NCBI RefSeq assembly: GCF_003334255.1 | Contig: NZ_QOWU01000014.1 | Source: Escherichia coli | Lineage (GTDB): Bacteria; Pseudomonadota; Gammaproteobacteria; Enterobacterales; Enterobacteriaceae | Length of the DNA stretch: 64,000 nucleotides | Direction: 5' to 3' (one strand) | Shown: positions 5,253 through 57,293 of the stretch, one piece after another | How positions within the stretch are numbered: position 1 is the stretch's first letter | Layout of the letters: each line of letters opens with the position of its first letter | Program-made: the position numbers and the translations under genes | The notes under the pieces: generated by a model | Told to the model about the DNA's origin: nothing | Database searches by the model: none | Seen by the model: the letters and a program-made list of their open reading frames with translations, nothing else

Positions 5253-7334
5253 TTACGCATTCGAGTAACGTTCCGTCTCCGGCATCCAGCGTTCTATCAG
5301 GGCTTTTGCCTGTTGTGGGTAACGTTCGTGAATATGGCGTGCCAGGCGCTGAACTTCCGGGATCATCGCCTGATCGCGCAGTAAATCCGCCACTTTAAAT
5401 TCAGCATTACCCGTCTGACGCGTGCCTAACAATTCGCCAGGGCCGCGAATCTCCAGATCTTTTTGCGCAATCACAAAACCGTCGTTACTGTCGCGCAGCA
5501 CTTGCAGGCGAATTTGCGCCGTTTTAGAAAGCGGCGTTTTGTAGAGCAGCACGCAGTGAGAAGCCACCGCGCCACGACCTACGCGCCCGCGCAGCTGGTG
5601 TAACTGCGCCAGACCCAGACGCTCCGGGTTTTCGATAATCATCAGACTGGCGTTAGGCACATCAACGCCGACTTCAATAACGGTTGTGGCAACCAGCAGG
5701 TGTAGCTCACCTTGTTTAAACGACGCCATCACCGCCTGTTTCTCGGCAGGTTTCATCCGCCCGTGTACCAGGCCAACGTTCAACTCTGGTAGCGCCAGTT
5801 TCAACTCTTCCCAGGTAGCTTCCGCCGCCTGCGCTTCCAGCAATTCCGACTCTTCAATCAACGTACAAACCCAGTATGCCTGACGACCTTCAGTTATGCA
5901 GGCGTGGTGCACGCGGTCAATGATGTCGGTACGGCGGGTATCAGGAATAGCGACCGTAGTCACTGGCGTGCGGCCTGGCGGCAGCTCATCTATCACCGAG
6001 GTATCGAGATCGGCATACGCAGTCATTGCCAGCGTGCGGGGGATCGGCGTGGCGGTCATGATCAACTGATGCGGATGGAAGCCCTGCTGCTGGCCTTTCT
6101 CCCACAATGCCAGACGCTGATGCACGCCAAAACGATGCTGTTCGTCGATAATCACCAGCGCCAGGCCGTTAAACTGCACCTGTTCCTGGAAGATGGCGTG
6201 TGTACCGACAATCATCTGCACCTGACCGCTGGCGATGGCTTCCTGCTGTGCCAGCCGTGCTTTACCTTTCTGCTTACCGGCGAGCCAGCCCACTTCGATA
6301 CCGAGCGGTGCAAACCAGTTGCGGAAGTTATTGGCGTGCTGCTCGGCGAGTAATTCGGTTGGTGCCATCAATGCTACCTGTTTGCCGTGGGCAATCGCAC
6401 GCAACGCGGCGAGGGCGGCGACCAGCGTTTTACCGGAACCTACATCGCCCTGCACCAGACGCATCATCGGCACATCCAGCGCCATATCGCGCTCGATCTC
6501 CGCCACTACGCGTGCCTGTGCGCCCGTTGGCTTGAACGGTAAGGCGGCGAGGAGTTTATTTTTCAGCGTGTCATTGGCGCTCAGCGGCTGGGCATGAAAA
6601 CGCTGTGCTCCGGCACGTAAGGCTAACATGCTGAGGTTGTGCGCCAGCAGTTCTTCCAGAATCAGACGACGTTGCGCCGGATGCTGCCCGGTTTCCAGAT
6701 CGCTAAGCTGTAGCGTCGGTGGCGGGCGGTGCAAAGTGCGCAACGCTTCCGGTAGCGTCATCATTCCTTGTGACAGTTCCGGCGGCAGGAGTTCTTCAAT
6801 GGCGCAGGTGTCGAGCAGATCCAGCGCCTGGTCGGTTAATTTACGCAGCGTGGCCTGCTTTACGCCTTCCGTTGTTGGATAAACCGGCGTGAGCGTTTCC
6901 TGTAATTCTGGCGTGCTGAGATCGCCCTGCACGCGGTATTCCGGGTGGATCATCTCCGCACCATATTTACCGCGCTTTGCTTCGCCATAAGCCAGTACAC
7001 GGCGGCCCGCCGCCAGGCTATTTTTCATTGCCGCGCTGAAATTGAAAAAGCGCATGGTGAGGATGCCGGAACCGTCGCTGATCTGGCAGGTCATCATCCG
7101 CCGACCGCCGAAGGAGATATTGCAGTTCAGCACTTCGCCTTCCACCGTGGCATAAACGCCCGGCAGTAGTTCTCCGATGGGGTAGAGATGGGTGCGATCT
7201 TCGTAGCGCAGGGGAAGGTGTAAGAGTAGATCCTGCACGGTATGCAGGTTGATTTTCGCCAGTTTGTTACTAAGTGCTGCGCCAACGCCCGTTAGGGAAC
7301 TGAGTGGGACAGCATCTAACAGGCGACCTTTCAT
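5253..7334 (-). CDS. recG: ATP-dependent DNA helicase RecG
   Basis: 693 aa from internal ATG (MKGRLLDAVPLSSLTGVG); Walker A GSGKT and DEQHRFG helicase motifs present in translation. Confidence 0.93.
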   Translation of the reverse strand: MKGRLLDAVPLSSLTGVGAALSNKLAKINLHTVQDLLLHLPLRYEDRTHLYPIGELLPGVYATVEGEVLNCNISFGGRRMMTCQISDGSGILTMRFFNFSAAMKNSLAAGRRVLAYGEAKRGKYGAEMIHPEYRVQGDLSTPELQETLTPVYPTTEGVKQATLRKLTDQALDLLDTCAIEELLPPELSQGMMTLPEALRTLHRPPPTLQLSDLETGQHPAQRRLILEELLAHNLSMLALRAGAQRFHAQPLSANDTLKNKLLAALPFKPTGAQARVVAEIERDMALDVPMMRLVQGDVGSGKTLVAALAALRAIAHGKQVALMAPTELLAEQHANNFRNWFAPLGIEVGWLAGKQKGKARLAQQEAIASGQVQMIVGTHAIFQEQVQFNGLALVIIDEQHRFGVHQRLALWEKGQQQGFHPHQLIMTATPIPRTLAMTAYADLDTSVIDELPPGRTPVTTVAIPDTRRTDIIDRVHHACITEGRQAYWVCTLIEESELLEAQAAEATWEELKLALPELNVGLVHGRMKPAEKQAVMASFKQGELHLLVATTVIEVGVDVPNASLMIIENPERLGLAQLHQLRGRVGRGAVASHCVLLYKTPLSKTAQIRLQVLRDSNDGFVIAQKDLEIRGPGELLGTRQTGNAEFKVADLLRDQAMIPEVQRLARHIHERYPQQAKALIERWMPETERYSNA

Positions 7335-24006: not shown

Positions 24007-24357
24007 AGTAAATAGCTGACTTATGGATGTGCTGGGGATTCTATGTATTTAGCTGTGGCTTTACCATTACTTTTCCCGTTTTTGACTTAAATAGCAATTT
24101 ACCCGCCAATTCTTGCTGAACATCTATACTTTTTTTGTATTTTTATGCGATTCATTGATTTCTGCTGTACGTGCAGGAAGGAATCGCAGAGCAACAGTGA
24201 AAGAATATGGTTGCTAATGATTTTATTTGATTGATTTCTTTATTGAAAATCAACAATGTGCTTAAAAATCATTCGGGTCGGATTGCCGCGAAAGAAGTGA
24301 TACACTAGCGCGTCAATATCAGTGCGGTATCAGTATTCAGGTAGCTGTTGAGCCTGG

Positions 24358-24369
24358 GGCGGTAGCGTG
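24358..24369 (+). promoter_or_regulatory. ops element GGCGGTAGCGTG (RfaH recruitment site) in the waaQ leader
   Basis: exact 12-mer about 50 bp upstream of the waaQ start. Confidence 0.8.
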
Positions 24370-47883: not shown

Positions 47884-48357
47884 CTAATCTCTCAATACCG
47901 CTCCCGGATACCCCAACTGCCGCCAGGCTTCATACACCACTACCGACACCGCATTGGACAGATTCATGCTGCGGCTGTCCGGCACCATCGGAATGCGAAT
48001 TTTTTGTTCAGCGGGCAGGGCATCAAGAATGCTCGCTGGCAGGCCGCGTGTTTCCGGGCCGAACATCAGATAATCGCCATCCTGATAGCTTACGGCGCTG
48101 TGAGCAGGTGTACCTTTCGTGGTGAGGGCGAACAGGCGCTGGGGATTTTCTGCTTCGAGGAACGCGCGATAGTCATGATGACGCGTAACGGCGGTAAACT
48201 CGTGATAGTCCAGCCCCGCGCGGCGCAGGCGCTTATCGTCCCAGGCAAATCCCATCGGTTCGATGATATGCAGACGAAAGCCGGTATTAGCGCAAAGACG
48301 GATGATGTTGCCAGTATTTGGCGGAATTTCTGGTTCGTAAAGTACGATGTTTAGCAT
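47884..48357 (-). CDS. trmL: tRNA (cytidine/uridine-2'-O)-methyltransferase
   Basis: 157-aa SpoU-family ORF. Confidence 0.9.
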
Positions 48358-48415
48358 ACTGCCCCCTTAGTGCGGGGGCAGGATAGCAGAAAATTGGTGA
48401 GCAGTGCGGCCTTTT

Positions 48416-48546
48416 CCCCTCACCCCGGCCCTCTCCCCGGAGGGGCGAGGGAGAAAAAAAGAGTGCGGTGTCGTTTCAGAGTGAGGGAGTACATACAGCG
48501 CCGAACGGTCCCCTCTCCCTGAGGGAGAGGGTTAGGGTGAGGGGGC
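48416..48546. repeat. pair of GGTGAGGG / CCCTCTCC-type palindromic intergenic repeats
   Basis: CCCCTCACCCCGGCCCTCTCCCCGGAGGGGCGAGGG and CCCTCTCCCTGAGGGAGAGGGTTAGGGTGAGGGGG; same motif family recurs in the mtlA-mtlD spacer; named family not assigned. Confidence 0.65.
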
Positions 48547-48554
48547 GCAAACGA

Positions 48555-49745
48555 CTATGCCGCATTCCCTTTCGCCATGGGATCCAGTGCCGCAGGCAAC
48601 TCTTTACCCAGCCCCTGCACCAGCGAATCTTGCGTAATTTCGCTGATCGATTTCGCGCCAGTCAGCGTCATCGCCACTTTCATCTCTTTTTCGATCAGAT
48701 TTAGCAGGTTAGCTACACCCGCCTGGCCCGCTGTTGCCAGCGCATACAAGAAAGCACGACCCAGCAGTACGGTGTCGGCACCGAGCGCAATCATACGCAC
48801 GACATCAAGCCCGTTACGAATTCCGCTATCCGCCAGAATGGCGATATCACCTTTCACCGCATCTGCAATAGCGGGCAACGCACGAGCGGAAGAGAGTACA
48901 CCGTCCAGCTGGCGGCCACCGTGGTTAGAAACCACAATTCCATCAGCACCAAAACGTACGGCATCGCGCGCATCTTCCGGATCGAGGATCCCTTTGATCA
49001 CCATCGGGCCATCCCAGAAATCGCGGATCCACTCAAGGTCTTTCCATGAGATAGACGGATCGAAGTTATTCCCCAGCCAGCCGATGTAATCTTCCAGTCC
49101 GGTCGGTTTGCCGAGATAAGCTGAGATATTACCTAAATCATGCGGACGACCGTTCAGACCCACATCCCACGCCCATTGCGGATGCGTCACCGCCTGCAAG
49201 TAACGGCGCATTGCCGCATTCGGGCCGCTCATACCTGAATGCGCATCACGGTAGCGTGCGCCCGGTGTCGGCATATCCACGGTGAAAACCAGCGTCGAAC
49301 AACCCGCTGCTTTTGCTCGCTCCAGCGCGTTACGCATAAAGCCGCGATCGCGCAGTACATAAAGCTGGAACCACATTGGGCGCTTGATGGCTGGCGCGAC
49401 TTCTTCAATCGGGCAAACGGAAACCGTCGAGAGAGTAAACGGAATGCCATGCGCGTCCGCCGCTTTGGCTGCCTGAACTTCGCCACGACGCGCATACATG
49501 CCACACAAACCCACCGGTGCCAGTGCTACCGGCATCGACAATTTCTCATTAAACAGCGTCGTTTCCAGGCTTAAGTCGGACATGTTTTTCAGAATACGCT
49601 GGCGCAGTGCCACTTCTGACAAATCTTCCACGTTGCGGCGCAGCGTGTATTCAGAATATGCACCACCATCCATATAGTGGAACAGGAACGGCGGCAGAAT
49701 GCGTTGCGCTGCGGCGCGATAATCGCTGGCTGCGGAAATAATCAT
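48555..49745 (-). CDS. lldD: L-lactate dehydrogenase (FMN-dependent)
   Basis: 396 aa [24 protein letters not shown]. Confidence 0.93.
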
Positions 49746-50518
49746 GCGTTTTTCTCCCTCGAATGCTCATTATGCTCACCGGGCAGGCGGGTAATCCGTG
49801 CGTGGCGAGCCTGATCTTCATCGAATCGTTTCATGGTGGTGTGAACAAAACTAAGGTGCGCCATCATTGCTTTACGCGCCCCGTCGGCATCACCAGCAAA
49901 AATGGCGTCAATGACAGCCTGATGTTGTTCGGTCAGTTGTGAAAAAACCGGTGGCACCAGATACATCCGCTGACGGCTATGCTTCACTGAGGATTGCAGG
50001 ACATCGAAGAAACCGCGCATGGTTTGCAGCAGCACGATGTTATGTGAGGCTTCGGCAATCGCCAGATGAAAACGAACGTCCGCTTGTGAGGCGATATCCG
50101 GGTCTTCACTTAGCGTTGCTTCAAAGCAAAGCTGAATCTTTTCTTTGTCGCCAGGTGTGGCGCGCATTGCCGCATGCCATGCGGTGCTGGCTTCAATGGC
50201 GTAGCGGGCTTCCAGAATATCGAAACTGTAATCCGGATCATCGGCCATCAGCGTTTTTAGCGGCTGGACGATGTTTTGCTCCGACCATGTGTCATGACGC
50301 CAGCGAATAAACGTCCCGCCGCCGCGTCGACTGAGCAGCACGCCTTCGCTCACCAGTTTTGCCAGTGCCTCGCGCAGTGAATTACGCGATACGCCGAGTT
50401 GCATCGCCAGTTGACGTTCAGCGGGCAACTTCATGCCCGCCTCCAGGTTTTTTTCATCAATCAGCGCCCGCACACGATCGGCAACCTCGTCTGACAGGCG
50501 TCTGGGTAAAACAATCAT
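49742..50518 (-). CDS. lldR: GntR-family regulator LldR
   Basis: 258 aa from internal ATG ([16 protein letters not shown]). Confidence 0.9.
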
Positions 50519-52173
50519 TAAGGAATCATCCACGTTAAGACATAAGCCTGAAGCGTGGTGATCACGCCCACCATACAGGTGAAGATCAGGCTGTGTTTGA
50601 CAGTAAAGCGGAACAAATCAGACTCTTTGCCCACCAGGCCTACCGCCGCACAGGCGATAGCGATAGATTGCGGGGAGATCATCTTACCGGTGACGCCACC
50701 GGTGGTATTGGCGGCAACCAGCAACAGATCAGAGACGCCAATTTGTTGTGCTGCGGTGGCTTGCAGCGCGGCGAACAGGGCGTTAGATGAGGTATCCGAC
50801 CCGGTCAGGAATACCCCCAGCCAGCCGAGGAACGGCGAGAAGAAGGTGAATGCATGACCGGTGTGCGCCAGTGCCAGCGCCAGGGTTGATGACAGTCCGG
50901 AATAGTTCGAAATAAAGGCGAATGCCAGCACCATACCGATGGAGTAGATGGGCAGAGCCAGTTCTTTCAGCGTGCTGCCGAAGGTGCTGATAGCGTCAGA
51001 CGGTTTCATCTTCAGCCAGACAATCGAGAGCAGTGCAGCAAACAGAATGGCGGTGCCGGTGGCAGAGAACCAGTCAAACTTAAACACGGCGGCATAGGCT
51101 GTAGCCTCGCTGACCACTGGCGGCATACGGGCAACCAGTTTATCGAGGTACGGCACCGGAATGTTGATCACCCACTCATACAGCGCGCCACCCGATGCGA
51201 ACAGGGCTTTAAACGGCGGGATACTCCACAGTGTTACGGTAGCTGTCAGGAACAGGAATGGTGTCCAGGCACGTAACACCTGACCCGCAGTGTAACCGGT
51301 GTGGGCCAGCGTCATATCAACCTGTGACGCCCCCAAATCACCAAAACGGAATACGCGCACTGGCTGCCAGCGTTTGAGGAACAGCGTCAGGCAGAGCAGT
51401 GATACCAGCGAAGAGATAATGTCCGGCAGCTCCGGCCCAATGAAGTTAGAGCTAAGGTACTGAGCGATGGCAAACGAGCCGCCCGCAACCACGACCGCAG
51501 GCCAGGTTTCTTTGATACCGCGCCAGCCGTCCATAATCGCCATGATCCAGAACAGCACGATGATGGTCATAAACGGTAGCTGACGCCCCACCATCTGGCC
51601 AATCTCAAAGCTGTCGATGCCTGTTACCTGTCCGGCAACCAGGATTGGAATGCCCATCGCACCAAATGCCACTGGCGCGGTGTTAACAATCAGGCACAGC
51701 CCGGCGGCGTACAGCGGTTTAAAGCCCAGACCGACCAGCAATGCGGCGGTAATTGCTACCGGTGCGCCAAAGCCTGCAGCTCCTTCGAGGAACGCGCCGA
51801 AACAGAAACCGACGATCAGCATTTGCAGGCGCTGGTCTGGGGTTATCGAAAGAATAGACGAGCGAATGATGTCAAACTGCCCGGTTTTCACCGAGATCTT
51901 ATAGACGAACACTGCTGCAATAATGATCCACGCGATGGGCCACAAACCATAGAAGAAGCCATAAACCACCGAGGCCAGCGCGTTAGCGACCGGCATTTTA
52001 TAGAACAGCAAAGCCACGGCAAGGGCGATTGCCACCGTCCATGAGGCGGCGACGTATCCTTTCAGTTTGAGCTTAATCAGCGCAAAGAAGAAAAACAGGA
52101 TGGGAAGCGATGCTATCAGACTGGAAAGCCAGATATTCCCGGCGGGATCGTAGTTTTGTTGCCAGAGATTCAT
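50518..52173 (-). CDS. lldP: L-lactate permease
   Basis: 551 aa from internal ATG ([18 protein letters not shown]). Confidence 0.92.
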
Positions 52174-52486
52174 TGCAGGTCTCCTGGAGTCCACGCACAT
52201 CGTGTAATGAGTCTGTTGCTCATCTCCTTGTCACACGTTGTGTAAAAGTGGCACTGCCAATTGTGTTGTGTAGGGATAATGACAATGAATAGTTAACTAA
52301 ATGTTATGTATTGGCAACGTTGATGTGAGTTTTAATTGGGGAATTGTGAACCAGAGGTCAGATAAGCGAAGAATTGGTAGGGCCAATTTTTTGGTGAAGG
52401 GAGATGTCTGGTAAAGAAAAGGGCAATCCTCATCAGAGAATTGCCCTTAGATTGTTGATCCAGAGCGCCTTATCTTGCCGGATGCG

Positions 52487-52519
52487 GCGTGAACACCTTA
52501 CTCGGCCTATAGGAATGTG
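52487..52519. repeat. REP (palindromic unit) element
   Basis: TGCCGGATGCGGCGTGAACACCTTACTCGGCCTATAGG; coordinates +/-2 bp. Confidence 0.7.
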
Positions 52520-52546
52520 CAGAATCACCCTGTAGATACTGTGTTC

Positions 52547-52909
52547 TTAAAACGCGGTCTTTGAAAACCCAGTCATCTCCTGCAGGCCCATTTCGCGGCC
52601 CAGTGCGGTCATTGGGTGCACAACGACCAGTCCGCGAACACTTTTCTTCAGCTTGCCCATATCAGCCTGCTCTTTTTTGGTAATTGCGCGCTGGAATGGC
52701 ATCTTCATCAGCTTCTGTGCTTCTTTACTCAGTTTTTGGCTATGAACTTCACGCAGGCGAGCAATTTCTGCTTCCAGCGTGGCTTTCTCTTTTTCCAGCT
52801 CGGCATATTTGTCTGCGGCTTCAACCAGCGAAAGATCGGCCTGCTGGTGGCGGATGGCGTCCAGGCGATCGCTGAGACGTTTGATTTCGTTTTTTTCGAC
52901 TTCTTTCAT
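52547..52909 (-). CDS. yibL: DUF2810 family protein YibL
   Basis: 120-aa lysine-rich ORF between lldP and mtlR. Confidence 0.8.
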
Positions 52910-53193
52910 GTGATGGCTTCTGATAAAGATAAATTTATAGCCCCTAGTATGCGCGACCAGGTGCTTTGTTCACAACTAATGACATTGTAATAGTTCTGTA
53001 ACGTAATCATTAACATGCTCAAAAACTACGCAATTCGTTGATTAATTAAGAAATCTATAGAAAAAAGATAATAAACAGCAGCGGATGATTATTGAGGATT
53101 CAGCACGTTTTCCTTAATGTCATCTTTACCGGGAACCTAAACTAAAATTGGCGGCCGCGCATTCCCGGCGCGGGGTAATACGGAGATATCATC

Positions 53194-53403
53194 ATGGGCA
53201 AATTAGGTGAAAACGTTCCGCTTCTTATCGATAAAGCCGTAGATTTCATGGCATCAAGCCAGGCGTTCCGGGAGTATCTGAAAAAACTTCCTCCCCGTAA
53301 CGCGATTCCGTCCGGAATACCCGATGAAAGCGTGCCGTTATATCTACAACGTCTGGAGTATTATCGTCGGCTTTATCGGCCGAAGCAGGTAGAGGGGCAG
53401 TAA
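53194..53403 (+). CDS. yibT: small uncharacterized protein YibT
   Basis: 69-aa [34 protein letters not shown] in the mtlR-yibL gap. Confidence 0.6.
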
Positions 53404-53414
53404 GCAGACGTTGC

Positions 53415-54002
53415 TTACTTTTGAAAGGCTTTTTTTAAGCTGATTTTGGAAATCAGCTCAGTCAGTGAAAGGACCATTGTTGATCGCACAGCCTGTTGAT
53501 AGCGCTGAATTTGCATTGCATACAAACTGGAGTCTGCTGGTTCAAACTGTGGCGGCGGTGGTAACGCCGCCACGCAGTGCAGTTCACCAAAGGGTCCAAG
53601 GATTTCGTCGTCGGTAAAGGCGTACTCGTTGCCGTCGTGATTTAGCTCTTCACGCAATGCCATCAGCAGTTCCGCATCTTCGTATTCCTGGCGGTTAATG
53701 ACGCCCAACCCGTAAATGAGTTTTAAACGCACAGAAAGATCGCCCAGCGGACCATCGCCGTCGAGTAACGGTTCTACAGCATACTTCACCGCGTAATCGT
53801 CTTTGCGGAATACCTGAAGCACCAGAAGATTTACCGCCTCGGTCAGGAGCTCGACGGCGGTGATCAGAAAGCTTCGCACGGTTTTGCCAGCATTCAGACG
53901 CTCAAGCACACGGTTTTCAAAGGCCTGGGTTTGTTCCATTGTTGCCTGCATATCTGACAATCTGTTATTCGGGCGCAGGGTGTCCTGCGCCTGGTCCACC
54001 AT
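53415..54002 (-). CDS. mtlR: mannitol operon repressor
   Basis: 195-aa ORF directly downstream of mtlD. Confidence 0.9.
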   Translation of the reverse strand: MVDQAQDTLRPNNRLSDMQATMEQTQAFENRVLERLNAGKTVRSFLITAVELLTEAVNLLVLQVFRKDDYAVKYAVEPLLDGDGPLGDLSVRLKLIYGLGVINRQEYEDAELLMALREELNHDGNEYAFTDDEILGPFGELHCVAALPPPPQFEPADSSLYAMQIQRYQQAVRSTMVLSLTELISKISLKKAFQK

Positions 54003-55150
54003 TATTGCATTGCTTTATAAGCGGTTACCGCCTCGGATACAACCTCGCTGTTGGCATCAAGACCGGAAATCTGTGCCAGCGCCGCCTGCGGACCTTTGTC
54101 AGCGATCAGTGCTGCCAGTTCCTGAGCCTGCGGATCATCTTCACTGCGGAAGTGCATTGCAGCGGCAATACCTTCAATCAGGTTTTTATGTGGCAGACCA
54201 TATTCCAGCGTACCGAGCAGTGGCTTGATCAGACGGTCGCCAGCACTCAGTTTACGCAGTGGCTGACGGCCTACGCGCTCTACATCATCTTTCAGATACG
54301 GGTTCTCAAAACGGCCGAGAATTTTCTGGATGTACGCCGCATGCTTGTCAGCGTCAAAGCCGTAGCGCTTGATCAATACTGCACCACTTTCTTCCATCGC
54401 ACCTTTTACCACCGCGCGGATTTTCTCGTCGAGAATCGCGTCACGAATGGTCTGATGACCGGCCAGTTTTCCGAGGTACGCGGTTATAGCATGACCCGTG
54501 TTCAGGGTGAAGAGTTTACGTTCGACAAATGCCATCAGGTTGTCGGTTAACTCCATGCCTGGGATGTTCGGCAGTGCGCCTTTGAACTGCGTTTTATCGA
54601 CAATCCATTCGCTGAAGGTTTCTACCGTCACTTCCAGCGGATCGTTAGTTGCCGAAGCCGAAGGCGGTACGATGCGGTCAACGGCGGAATCGACAAAGCC
54701 AACGTGTTCTTCTACCCACGCTTTGGCGTCTTCCGGCAGGGCGTTCATCACATGGCCTTTCAGCTGCGTGGTACCGCGTACCATGTTTTCACAGGCGATG
54801 ATGTTCAGCGGGGATTCATTACCTTGTTCTTTACGTTTCACCAGCCCTTTGGCGATTGCCGGAGCAATACGTTCCAGCACAACCGGGCCAACGGCGGTAG
54901 TGACTAAATCAACCTGAGCAATCAGATCAACGACATCATCACCAATGCTGCTGACAGCATTGACGCCGGAAACGGTATCTACCTGCTCGGTTTCACCAAC
55001 CACATGTACCTGATAGCTATGACGGGCATTCAGGGCATCAAGTACCACCTGATTGACATCGGCAAACGTCAGTTGGATACCCGCGTCTGCCAGCAGTTTA
55101 CCGATAAAGCCACGACCGATATTACCTGCGCCAAAATGTAATGCTTTCAT
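54002..55150 (-). CDS. mtlD: mannitol-1-phosphate 5-dehydrogenase
   Basis: 382 aa from internal ATG ([20 protein letters not shown]); the longer track ORF is read-through of the REP spacer. Confidence 0.93.
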
Positions 55151-55179
55151 AGTATTAACCTTCATCAATGTTTTTACCC

Positions 55180-55375
55180 GAGAGGGCTGGGGTGAGGCTT
55201 TTCCCTCACCCAAACCCTCTCCGTGAGGAGAGGGGCAGCGCCGGATGCGGCGTAAGCGCCTTATCCGGCCTACAAGAACGTGCAAATTCAACAAATTGTG
55301 ATGCATCCTGTAGGCCTGATAAGCGTAGCGCATCAGGCAATTAACCCCACCTTCTCCATGTGGAGAGGGTGGGAT
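55180..55375. repeat. composite REP cluster in the mtlA-mtlD spacer
   Basis: two inverted REP units (GCCGGATGCGGCGTAAGCGCCTTATCCGGCCTACA and TGTAGGCCTGATAAGCGTAGCGCATCAGGC) flanked by GGTGAGG/CCCTCTCC palindromes. Confidence 0.8.
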
Positions 55376-55379
55376 TGGA

Positions 55380-57293
55380 TTACTTACGACCTGCCAGCAG
55401 TTCCAGCACTTCATCCACGCTGGTGGTGTGTGCCAGACGCTCGATGACGGACTCATCATCCAGTGCATTGGTCAGGCTGGTGATAACCTGAATGTGCTCG
55501 TTGTTACGGGCAGCAATACCAATCACCAGACGGGCAATGTCATCTTCTTCTTCACCGAAGCGCACGCCTTCCGGGTACTGGCAGAACACGACGCCCGTTT
55601 TCAGTACGCGATCTTTCGCTTCAACCGTACCGTGTGGCACCGCGATAGACTCACCCAGATAAGTCGGGGTCAGTTTTTCACGATCCAGCATCGCCTGAAC
55701 GTATTCCGGCTCAACGTAACCGCCTTTCACCAGCTGCTCGCCAGCAAAACGAATCGCTTCTTCTTTGGTTGCCGCTTTGCGACCGAGGAAGATGTTCTCC
55801 GCGCCTAGCTTGAACAGGTTAGCACTGGAATCGTCAAAGCTGTCTTTCAGGCTGTCTTTTACTTTCTCTTCGTTTGCCGTGTGGCGTTGGGCAGCAACCA
55901 GACGTTCGGTCAGGCTGGTGTACAGGCCGCTGTCGAGGAAGTTGGTCAGCGAAATATGCTGTGCCTGCGGAACCTGGCGCATAGCGCGTTCGGTCAGGTC
56001 ACGGTGAGTGATGACGAGGTCCACATCTGGCGGCAGGTTGTTGATCGCGCTGTTAGTAACAGAAATCTGCGACAGACCTGCATCCTGAATTTTCTTACGC
56101 AGAACGCCTGCGCCCATCGCACTGGAACCCATACCGGCGTCACAGGCAACGATGATTTTACGTACGTGGCTCAGGTCGTTAGTCACATCGCCAGCAGACA
56201 GCGGAGATGCGCCTTTAGACTCAGCTTTCATGTCCTGCATACGACGAGTTGCTGCTTCAATATCATCTTCTTCTTTCACTTTGCTGGTTTTCAGCAAAAT
56301 AGCAGAGACAACGAAGGAGACAGCCATCGCCGCACACACACCCGCGATGTTAGCGAAGTAAGCACCTTTTGGTGTCATCGCCAGTACAGCAAGGATAGAA
56401 CCCGGAGATGCCGGAGAAACCAGACCACCGCCCAGGATAGTCAGCGTGAACACGCCAGTCATACCGCCGAGGATGACTGCGAGGATCAGACGCGGATTCA
56501 TCAGCACATACGGGAAGTAGATTTCGTGGATACCCCCCAGGAAGTGGATGATTGCCGCACCGCCCGCAGACTGTTTAGCGCTACCACGACCAAAGAACAT
56601 GTACGCCAGCAGCACGCCCATACCTGGACCTGGGTTAGCTTCAATCAGGAAGAAGATTGATTTACCCAGTTCATGGGACTGCTGAATACCCAGCGGCGAG
56701 AAGATACCGTGGTTAATGGCGTTGTTGAGGAACAGGATTTTCGCCGGTTCAACAAAGATAGACGCCAGCGGCAGCATGTCATGGACAACCATGAAGTTAA
56801 CGCCCGCAGCCAGCATTTTGGACAGGGCTTCAACAATCGGGCCAATGCCGAGGAATGCCAGAATAGCGAGGATCATCCCGATGATGCCTGCGGAGAAGTT
56901 ATTCACCAGCATCTCAAAACCGGATTTGATCTTACCGTCTACCCAGCGGTCGAAGTGCTTAATGCACCAGCCGCCCAGCGGACCTGCAATCATAGAACCG
57001 AGGAACATCGGCATGTCTGCGCCGACGATAACGCCCATGGTGGTGATGGCACCGACTACGCCGCCACGTTCGCCGCCTACCAGCTTACCACCGGTATAAC
57101 CGATCAGCAGCGGCAGGAGATAAGTGATCATCGGCCCGACCAGCTTCGCCAGCGTCTCGTTCGGTAACCACCCTGTTGGAATAAATAACGCGGTGATGAT
57201 ACCCCACGCGATAAACGCGCCGATATTTGGCATCACCATGTTGCTGAGGAAACGACCAAAGCTTTGCACTTTGATCTTAATATCGGATGACAT
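55380..57293 (-). CDS. mtlA: PTS mannitol-specific EIICBA component
   Basis: 637 aa [39 protein letters not shown]. Confidence 0.95.

Follow-up and report, generated by a model that had tools for sequence, protein, structure and literature searches.

Why should one copy of a repetitive palindrome decay freely within a species when another copy of the same repeat is held almost unchanged at a single spot of the mannitol operon? This contrast, in which the value of the present comparison lies, is found in a stretch of 64,000 nucleotides of the Escherichia coli chromosome (contig NZ_QOWU01000014.1 of assembly GCF_003334255.1; hereafter the window) that has near-identical matches in thousands of genomes. 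The two copies lie in the spacer between lldD and trmL and in the spacer between mtlA and mtlD, both base-for-base identical to those of K-12 MG1655. A first-pass annotation of the window had described them as a single palindromic repeat family, combined at the second locus with repetitive extragenic palindromic (REP) units. We conclude that the repeat is BoxC at both loci and, on balance, lean towards the reading that the lldD-trmL copy is dispensable and that the mtl copy is a selected RNA structure within the mtl messenger.

The first step, the identity of the repeat, is straightforward. Exactly two copies of the motif CCCTCTCC-N2-6-GGAGAGGG are present in the window (48511-48531 and 55215-55234), and none in shuffled sequences. 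The repeat is the known family BoxC, which, like REP, is one of the textbook repeats of E. coli. The literature on BoxC, PIT and TMECO includes Bergler 1992, Bachellier, and Hoyne and Maher 2000. A non-coding, G/C-rich repeat of Enterobacteriaceae, BoxC was rediscovered as the 'PIT element' and later as 'TMECO', an intrastrand-triplex motif. In each unit a C-rich arm is followed by two G-rich arms, either of which can pair with it; a loop of 3-6 nt precedes the first G-rich arm and one of 3 nt the second (Holder et al., 2015; PMC4666352). The complete pattern as published, CCCTCNCCC-N3-6-GGGNGAGGG-N3-GGGNGAGGG, is present at 48417-48451 (minus strand) and 48511-48543 (plus strand) and nowhere else in the window, with zero occurrences expected. 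These two sites are no. 18 and no. 17 of the 23 TMECO units listed for K-12, located between lldD and trmL at 3,781,121-3,781,156 and 3,781,061-3,781,028, respectively (PMC4666352), so that the repeat does have a name, contrary to the first-pass annotation, which could assign it to no named family. An older K-12 annotation holds 33 BoxC elements of 51-59 bp. None of the units of the mtlA-mtlD locus is among the 23 published ones, and the unit at 55203-55234 fails the strict pattern, having 8-nt stems as opposed to 9-nt stems. Nevertheless, a family profile built from the 21 other published K-12 units, with both locus-1 units left out, matches it with an E-value of 0.0015, next to 1.3e-9 (48511-48544) and 5e-9 (48416-48451) for the two lldD-trmL units and only 0.21 for a partial unit at 55180-55197. 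The profile has no further matches in the window. Pattern and profile together bear out a single family at the two loci, and the inverted arrangement proposed for both is likewise seen, as 22-nt arms that are 86% complementary at locus 1 and as an 18-nt inverted repeat (55180-55197 with 55204-55221, 89%) at mtl.

Across the 5426 complete E. coli genomes that underlie all within-species counts given here, a 36-nt type A query is found in 5409, with 1-36 places per genome and a median of 19; 93219 of the 93298 places are chromosomal, and nearly all are intergenic, under no annotated gene. Because the motif is found throughout E. coli genomes, the genome-wide recurrence check, proposed at the outset as a possible refutation, leaves the repeat family standing. 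Rfam contains no family covering the BoxC element, either at the gathering threshold or at E<=1.

What, then, sets the mtl copy apart? The spacer that contains it is composite, with about 1.6 degenerate BoxC units on the mtlD side, two inverted REPs, and a BoxC-like half hairpin, H1, on the mtlA side (Table 1). The mtlD-proximal element, 55180-55234, combines the 18-nt inverted repeat with a hairpin (55215-55222/55227-55234); on the plus strand, its portion 55180-55197 is a truncated type-B-like BoxC unit with the loop CTG. A query placed over this element finds it in 5405 of the 5426 E. coli genomes, with at least 99% identity in 4899, and, apart from changes in loop L1 of the RIVM allele, all seven E. 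coli length alleles agree over the 84 nt that run from arm a up to the start of mtlD. Conservation extends far beyond the species. In a set of 80 orthologous loci, one per species of Enterobacterales, retrieved by one genome-collection scan with MtlD, the element closes the spacer at the same position and in the same orientation in 65, Salmonella included, and these comprise 65 of the 65 sampled Enterobacteriaceae: every sampled member of Escherichia, Salmonella, Citrobacter, Klebsiella, Enterobacter, Kosakonia, Lelliottia, Leclercia, Pluralibacter, Phytobacter, Cedecea, Buttiauxella, Siccibacter, Franconibacter, Mangrovibacter, Atlantibacter, Yokenella and others. The order of its parts across species is a (CCCTCTCCC)-L1-a' (GGGAGAGGG)-TTA-b (GGGTGAGGG)-L2-b' (CCTCACCCC)-AG-a'' (CCCTCTC)-GGGTAAAAACATTGATGAAGGTTAATACT-ATG, and the strict TMECO pattern is matched by the mtl copies of 25 of the 65 species. 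The 15 loci of the set in which the element was not found belong to Pantoea, Mixta and relatives and carry unrelated G/C-rich hairpins.

The degree of conservation is best appreciated against the rest of the same locus. Over the 65 species, the mean pairwise identity of the stems is 0.95 for a', 0.91 for b, 0.85 for b' and 0.91 for a''; the corresponding values for mtlD are 0.94, 0.98 and 0.59 at codon positions 1, 2 and 3. The part of the spacer proximal to mtlA differs in every genus. One could still argue that all copies, that at mtl included, are neutral or selfish DNA and that the mtl copy is conserved only as an old, G/C-rich sequence that is repaired or homogenised against other members of the family. 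The wide spread of copy numbers among E. coli genomes and the loss of locus 1 in half of the strains fit this view, as does the published survey of TMECO, in which no bias of functional class or distance and no regulatory pattern was found (PMC4666352), and one E. coli allele, in which the BoxC loop has turned into the ACAT loop of H1, hints at gene conversion. However, neutral sites of the same locus are far more diverged than the stems, at 0.51 for fourfold-degenerate sites of mtlD and 0.37 for the upstream spacer, and free variation is seen in loops L1 and L2 but not in the stems. Salmonella is particularly telling in this respect. Its genome is reported to contain no TMECO anywhere (Holder et al., 2015; PMC4666352), yet the mtl copy is the same element, in a variant, GGTTGAGGG, that slips past the published pattern; since no other TMECO is reported there, donor copies are lacking and homogenisation does not account for the retention. 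Furthermore, the derived GGTTGAGGG variant is common to Salmonella and Citrobacter and therefore indicates vertical descent. We accordingly hold the neutral explanation to be unlikely. Independent insertions into a hot spot were also considered and are ruled out, given that all 65 copies share the orientation and the junction with the mtlD leader. The best explanation as a whole, which we favour by a modest degree of belief, is that the mtlD-proximal element was fixed before the genera of Enterobacteriaceae diverged and has probably been kept by selection.

If the mtl copy is selected, at what level would selection act? Read as RNA of the mtlA-mtlD-mtlR messenger, the element could form either of two mutually exclusive folds: in fold 1, adjacent hairpins a:a' and b:b'; in fold 2, a single hairpin of ~18 bp in which a'b pairs with b'a''. 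The two are computed to be near-isoenergetic, with a mean gap of 1.9 kcal/mol in favour of the long hairpin (standard deviation 2.7). In the MAFFT alignment, 91.6% of the cells of the long hairpin are paired, compared with 36-58% when the partners are slid; seven pairs, with 21 cells, change on both sides, and none of 500 shuffles reaches the observed values. The clearest compensation is at loop 2, where TTA/CAG, with one A-C mismatch, gives way in several lineages to the fully paired TTC/GAA, TTC/GAG or CCA/TGG, and b:b' is compensated as GGGAAAGGG/CTTTCCCC in Franconibacter and GGGTGAAAGGC/GCCTTTCACCC in Atlantibacter. Because the length of L1 varies, RNAalifold on this alignment misplaces arm a, and the a:a' helix was scored per sequence instead: it is uninterrupted over at least 8 bp in 60 of the 65 species, with a free loop sequence. 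With two polymorphic positions excluded, the non-Watson-Crick cells are 48 G.U versus 6 A.C, and in a:a' all 32 are U.G. Since G.U is tolerated only in RNA, this wobble bias argues for a structure formed by RNA of the mtl sense strand. That a, a' and a'' might form an RNA triple helix of the pyrimidine type was rejected by reasoning: both C-rich arms are antiparallel to a' and compete for Watson-Crick and not Hoogsteen pairing.

The pattern of substitutions bears directly on the proposal of Holder et al. that the elements act as DNA, the G-rich strand, when single-stranded, folding into an intrastrand purine-motif triplex that stalls polymerases and provokes local deletions and rearrangements. 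For the consensus, the triplex has been observed in vitro by circular dichroism and nuclear magnetic resonance, together with polymerase stops, although in vivo footprinting with dimethyl sulfate showed no protection (PMC4666352). Excess variability at TMECO loci is on record in published work; locus 1 of the window, with its five length alleles and breakpoints in the arms, conforms to it, the O157:H7 allele of the mtl spacer is a deletion between two copies of CCCTCTCC, and the mtl unit permits 8 of 9 base triads on inspection by eye. Such instability, however, accounts for loss and not for the keeping of the mtl copy throughout the family; in DNA, a G.T pair is a mismatch, so that the wobble bias fits RNA pairing, and b' and a'' are conserved though they form no part of the triplex. 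We therefore give the triplex explanation rather little weight for these loci. REP units bind gyrase and IHF, and the palindromes could also be the sites of a dimeric DNA-binding or nucleoid protein, with BoxC having perhaps a partner of its own. A symmetric site would likewise produce paired changes in the arms, and sequence conservation beyond what structure alone demands is typical of protein sites; yet twofold symmetry is lost through the conserved extra arm a, the spacing of the arms across L2 ranges from 4 to 20 nt, which is hard to fit with a fixed dimer footprint, and the wobble bias is strand-specific. We also know of no BoxC-binding protein. Recent work on the mtl operon assigns MtlR to the CRP sites upstream of mtlA, without mention of any intergenic site (PMC13421365), and we rate a protein-binding role as quite improbable.

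An RNA structure in the mtl messenger being the reading that we prefer, what could it do? The earlier description credited each unit with a strong hairpin, which does not hold for the single BoxC units (-8 to -11 kcal/mol with DNA parameters, z-scores of -0.2 to -1.9, as is usual for their composition) and does hold for the composites: the whole mtl spacer as RNA folds at -111.9 kcal/mol (z -8.3; segment 55176-55237, z -3.8) and the lldD-trmL gap at -69.8 kcal/mol (z -2.8), the two units of the latter pairing over ~30 bp. Strong G/C-rich stems just past stop codons might be taken for intrinsic terminators or attenuators of the lldD and mtlA transcripts. Scans, however, detected no terminator-like site on the coding, minus strand and no promoter-like site at either locus, no stem is followed by a run of T, and mtlD and mtlR lie downstream of a spacer devoid of promoter-like sites; termination is hardly credible here. 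Most likely, the element works as RNA within the mtlA-mtlD-mtlR messenger, where a stable intercistronic structure would decide the fate of the message between mtlA and mtlD, as a barrier to decay or a processing site that would hold the MtlA:MtlD ratio. By analogy with REP hairpins in other operons, an effect on decay or processing of the messenger is what we consider most likely; both this effect and action at the RNA level are inferred by us from comparison of sequences, in which identity, copy number, polymorphism, conservation and covariation are directly observed. Loss of MtlD makes mannitol toxic, in that importing cells are poisoned (PMC11784389), and for this reason the balance between MtlA and MtlD matters. 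Two more specific mechanisms were examined and rejected. A switch at the mtlD ribosome-binding site is ruled out by the predicted unpaired probability of positions -14 to -5, which does not change between the two folds and averages 0.52, 0.54 and 0.53 over the 65 species under three constraints, and a general coupling of the element to ribosomes that stop at the end of mtlA is ruled out by the position of arm a, which is at most 15 nt from the stop in 26 of the 65 species and 145 nt from it in E. coli. With respect to the role as transcript stabiliser or differential-expression element that had been suggested for the repeats, the mtlD-proximal element thus remains a plausible candidate by its conservation and RNA-type covariation; the suggestion finds no support for the lldD-trmL pair, which is absent or truncated in about half of the 5426 genomes, and published tests of these elements found no role in expression.

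Several considerations weigh against a selected RNA structure at mtl. The covariation counts are of cells and not of independent events, given that the sequences are related, and related sequences can outdo all shuffles without any structure. Arm a' is nearly invariant, so that the a:a' and a':a'' pairings rest on conservation and not on covariation, and the conservation could instead reflect a role at the level of DNA. E. coli tolerates from 0 to 8 REPs between mtlA and the element, for which reason coupling to the mtlA stop codon is not essential. Finally, no experiment links any BoxC copy to expression, and the Maher studies cited in the TMECO survey report no in vivo effect of these elements (PMC4666352).

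Could a more ambitious scenario be entertained? It is possible, although we would not ourselves bet on it, that the mtl BoxC is an ancient, exapted cis-acting RNA with two folds, present throughout Enterobacteriaceae, that tunes the expression or stability of mtlA and mtlD against mannitol-1-phosphate toxicity, and is perhaps the founder of the lineage-specific BoxC families of E. coli and Enterobacter. In Enterobacter-like genomes, further strict TMECO units, in part arranged as inverted pairs, are found at a distance of 2.2-2.9 kb downstream of the mtlD start (5625-5805 of locus L028, 5625-5861 of L032, 5309-5341 of L035, 5293-5325 of L036 and 5168-5256 of L038), and these are the sole strict copies outside the mtl spacer in the 563 kb of fetched loci. 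The Pantoea and Mixta spacers (L079, L082, L085-L089, L091-L093) contain two unrelated G/C-rich hairpins, the second being GGGGCGG-ATTT-GCCCGCCC followed by TTTCGTCATTT, which is attenuator-like. As these spacers without BoxC carry other hairpins, a structured spacer may be a general trait of the mtl operon.

Table 1. Genes, repeat units and hairpins of the lldD-trmL and mtlA-mtlD spacers, in window coordinates
Feature	Position	Strand	Sequence or remark
trmL	47884-48357	-	
BoxC/TMECO unit, type B with one mismatch (loop 2 = CCG)	48416-48451	-	CCCTCGCCCC-TCC-GGGGAGAGGG-CCG-GGGTGAGGGG; K-12 TMECO no. 18
59-nt spacer between head-to-head units	48452-48510	.	partial CCCTCAC copy at 48479-48487; seven-T run on the lldD sense strand
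BoxC/TMECO unit, type A (loop 2 = TTA)	48511-48544	+	CCCTCTCCC-TGA-GGGAGAGGG-TTA-GGGTGAGGGG; K-12 TMECO no. 17
lldD	48555-49745	-	
mtlD	54002-55150	-	
Conserved mtlD leader	55151-55179	-	GGGTAAAAACATTGATGAAGGTTAATACT then ATG; includes Shine-Dalgarno AAGG; identity ~0.77-0.81 across 65 species
Long-hairpin 3' half	55180-55197	-	b' CCTCACCCC 55189-55197, AG, a'' CCCTCTC 55180-55186
Loop L2 of long hairpin	55198-55202	-	AAAAG in E. coli; 4-20 nt and of variable sequence in other genera
Degenerate BoxC unit, 8-nt stems (loop 2 = TTT)	55203-55234	-	a CCCTCTCC 55227-55234, TCAC, a' GGAGAGGG 55215-55222, TTT, b GGGTGAGGG 55203-55211
REP unit	55240-55273	+	GCCGGATGCGGCG...CCGGCCTAC
Second REP unit, inverted relative to the first	55310-55338	+	GTAGGCCTGATAAG...GCATCAGGC; the pair is a bacterial interspersed mosaic element (BIME)
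mtlA-proximal hairpin H1, 12 bp	55345-55373	-	CCCACCCTCTCC-ACAT-GGAGAAGGTGGG; 7 nt past the mtlA stop codon
mtlA	55380-57293	-	

The other copy, between lldD and trmL, presents the opposite picture. The two units obey the rule that in an inverted BoxC pair one unit is of type A and the other of type B (PMC4666352), with the loops TTA and CCG. At least 80% of the 197-nt spacer is kept in 2715 of the 5426 E. coli genomes, and elsewhere the BoxC pair is missing or truncated. By sampling the genome ranking and aligning representatives, we found five classes of length alleles: the K-12-like one of 197 nt, in about one fifth of the genomes; one of 185 nt, in which a 12-nt deletion takes out one G arm of the type B unit; those of 153-154 nt, with the inner halves swapped for an unrelated 35-nt palindrome; one of 72 nt, with one G-arm remnant left; and one of 47 nt that lacks BoxC altogether, found in B2 strains such as E2348/69. 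Breakpoints lie inside the arms, and the 59-nt stretch between the units is swapped or deleted in other E. coli alleles, which reproduces the published picture of unstable BoxC loci. Since alleles without BoxC exist in the species, the pair is not needed for lldD or trmL. The explanation that, as a whole, we find somewhat more persuasive than not is that it is a recent, strain-variable, dispensable insertion without a dedicated role, which would be co-transcribed as a long hairpin and mark a spot prone to small deletions.

Two further features of this gap deserve mention. The perfect 35-nt palindrome that replaces the inner halves of BoxC in about one sixth of the genomes, CTGTCTCTTGATCAGATCTCCTGATCAAGAGACAG (238-272 of L003 and 237-271 of L004), occurs in 2468 of the 5426 genomes, at 1-44 places, often under features annotated as 'IS4 family transposase' and on plasmids; its arm presumably equals the IS50/Tn5 inside end. 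Next to trmL, at 48359-48381, RNA of the minus strand can form an 8-bp G/C hairpin, CTGCCCCC-GCACTAA-GGGGGCAG, which ends 1 nt 5' of the trmL ATG and stays unchanged across the seven spacer alleles of E. coli, even in the 47-nt one of B2 strains. As its 3' arm holds the sole Shine-Dalgarno-like purine run, AAGGGGG, this hairpin may restrain translation of trmL.

Instability is not absent from the mtl spacer either, and it is confined to the REP block and H1. The spacer has length alleles of 94, 217, 228, 229, 319, 419 and 520 nt in E. coli, with 0, 2, 4, 6 or 8 REPs, the 94-nt allele being that of O157:H7 and the 229-nt one that of K-12; the longer form is found in E. albertii and most E. coli. 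Both REPs of the window fit the REP/BIME criteria, being imperfect palindromes of ~30-35 nt with the ends GCC(G/T)GATGCG ... (C/A)GGCCTAC, inverted and of high copy number, and the part of the query that holds the pair is found at 40 or more places per genome. From 2 REPs the block grows to 4, 6 and 8 in steps of ~100 nt, two REPs each, in O25:H4 (L011), SSGw1 (L012) and DETEC-E1005 (L013), which is tandem BIME amplification in some lineages. In O157:H7 (L008), the REP block is lost and the CCCTCTCC of H1 runs straight into that of the BoxC unit, which is most simply read as a deletion between direct repeats of 8 nt, with H1 as one endpoint. In the 80-species set, REPs were not found in the mtlA-mtlD spacer of any genus outside Escherichia, and H1 was found only in E. 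coli and E. albertii. Being strain-variable, REPs and H1 are not required. A match to Rfam naRNA4 (RF02564), a REP-derived nucleoid-associated RNA, over a REP unit stays below threshold, at 41.3 bits against a gathering score of 59.5 (2881-2937 of L015, the orthologue of ~55217-55273); the sole Rfam family above threshold in the window is the JUMPstart RNA at 24331-24369 on the plus strand (55.2 bits against 35).

H1 itself folds as DNA at -9.7 kcal/mol (z -3.0) and has the 8-nt CCCTCTCC in common with the BoxC unit. Lacking the GGGTGAGGG arm, it is only a BoxC-like half, and full membership in the family is ruled out by its failure to be detected by the profile. The claim of the first-pass annotation that the motif flanks the REPs therefore stands firmly on the mtlD side only. 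In E. coli RIVM_C039205 (L010), the loop of the BoxC a:a' hairpin is ACAT, as in H1, in place of the TCAC of other alleles, which suggests gene conversion between these hairpins, both with CCCTCTCC and 130 nt apart.

What do these findings mean for BoxC? The family, the REPs and locus 1 were already known and catalogued, and the original observation as stated is ordinary. By contrast, the family-wide conservation of the mtlD-proximal element and its RNA-type pattern of substitutions appear not to have been reported before: a literature search found no paper on an mtlA-mtlD intergenic element, and recent work on mtl regulation deals with the promoter region only and leaves the spacer unmentioned (PMC13421365); a second study does not mention the element either (PMC11784389). 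To our knowledge, thirty years have passed with no demonstrated function for BoxC. A single copy under clear selection, apparently retained since before the split of Escherichia, Salmonella, Klebsiella and Enterobacter, with substitutions that fit RNA pairing, offers a concrete place to seek such a function and suggests that an operon in which imbalance is toxic has a post-transcriptional layer that has gone unstudied.

How do the two loci compare with known systems? With respect to BoxC/TMECO, locus 1 is a regular member, a type A and type B inverted pair that is intergenic and strain-variable, although it is arranged head-to-head with a 59-nt gap whereas the other four TMECO pairs of K-12 have a tail-to-tail arrangement and gaps of 16-27 nt. 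The mtl unit shares the layout in three arms and matches the family profile, and the length of the annotated K-12 BoxC elements fits its 55-nt palindrome. It differs in the strict 9-nt-stem pattern and in being absent from the 23-unit list and, whereas the family is described as unstable and patchy, the mtl copy is universal among the sampled Enterobacteriaceae, Salmonella included. The two inverted REPs behave as REP/BIME elements do, with hundreds of relatives per genome and a copy number at this site that varies by strain; REP and BoxC are unrelated in sequence and merely adjacent at mtl, and in Rfam the REP-derived RNA naRNA4 touches the REP part only. REP hairpins have been shown experimentally to stabilise the messenger in polycistronic operons, with malE-malF as the paradigm. 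The mtl element resembles this system as a stable intercistronic hairpin in an operon, devoid of terminator features, that is proposed to set the relative expression of the upstream and downstream genes. In contrast to the malE-malF REPs, the role of BoxC at mtl is one that we propose from comparison, and the conserved part adjoins the downstream gene and has two alternative folds.

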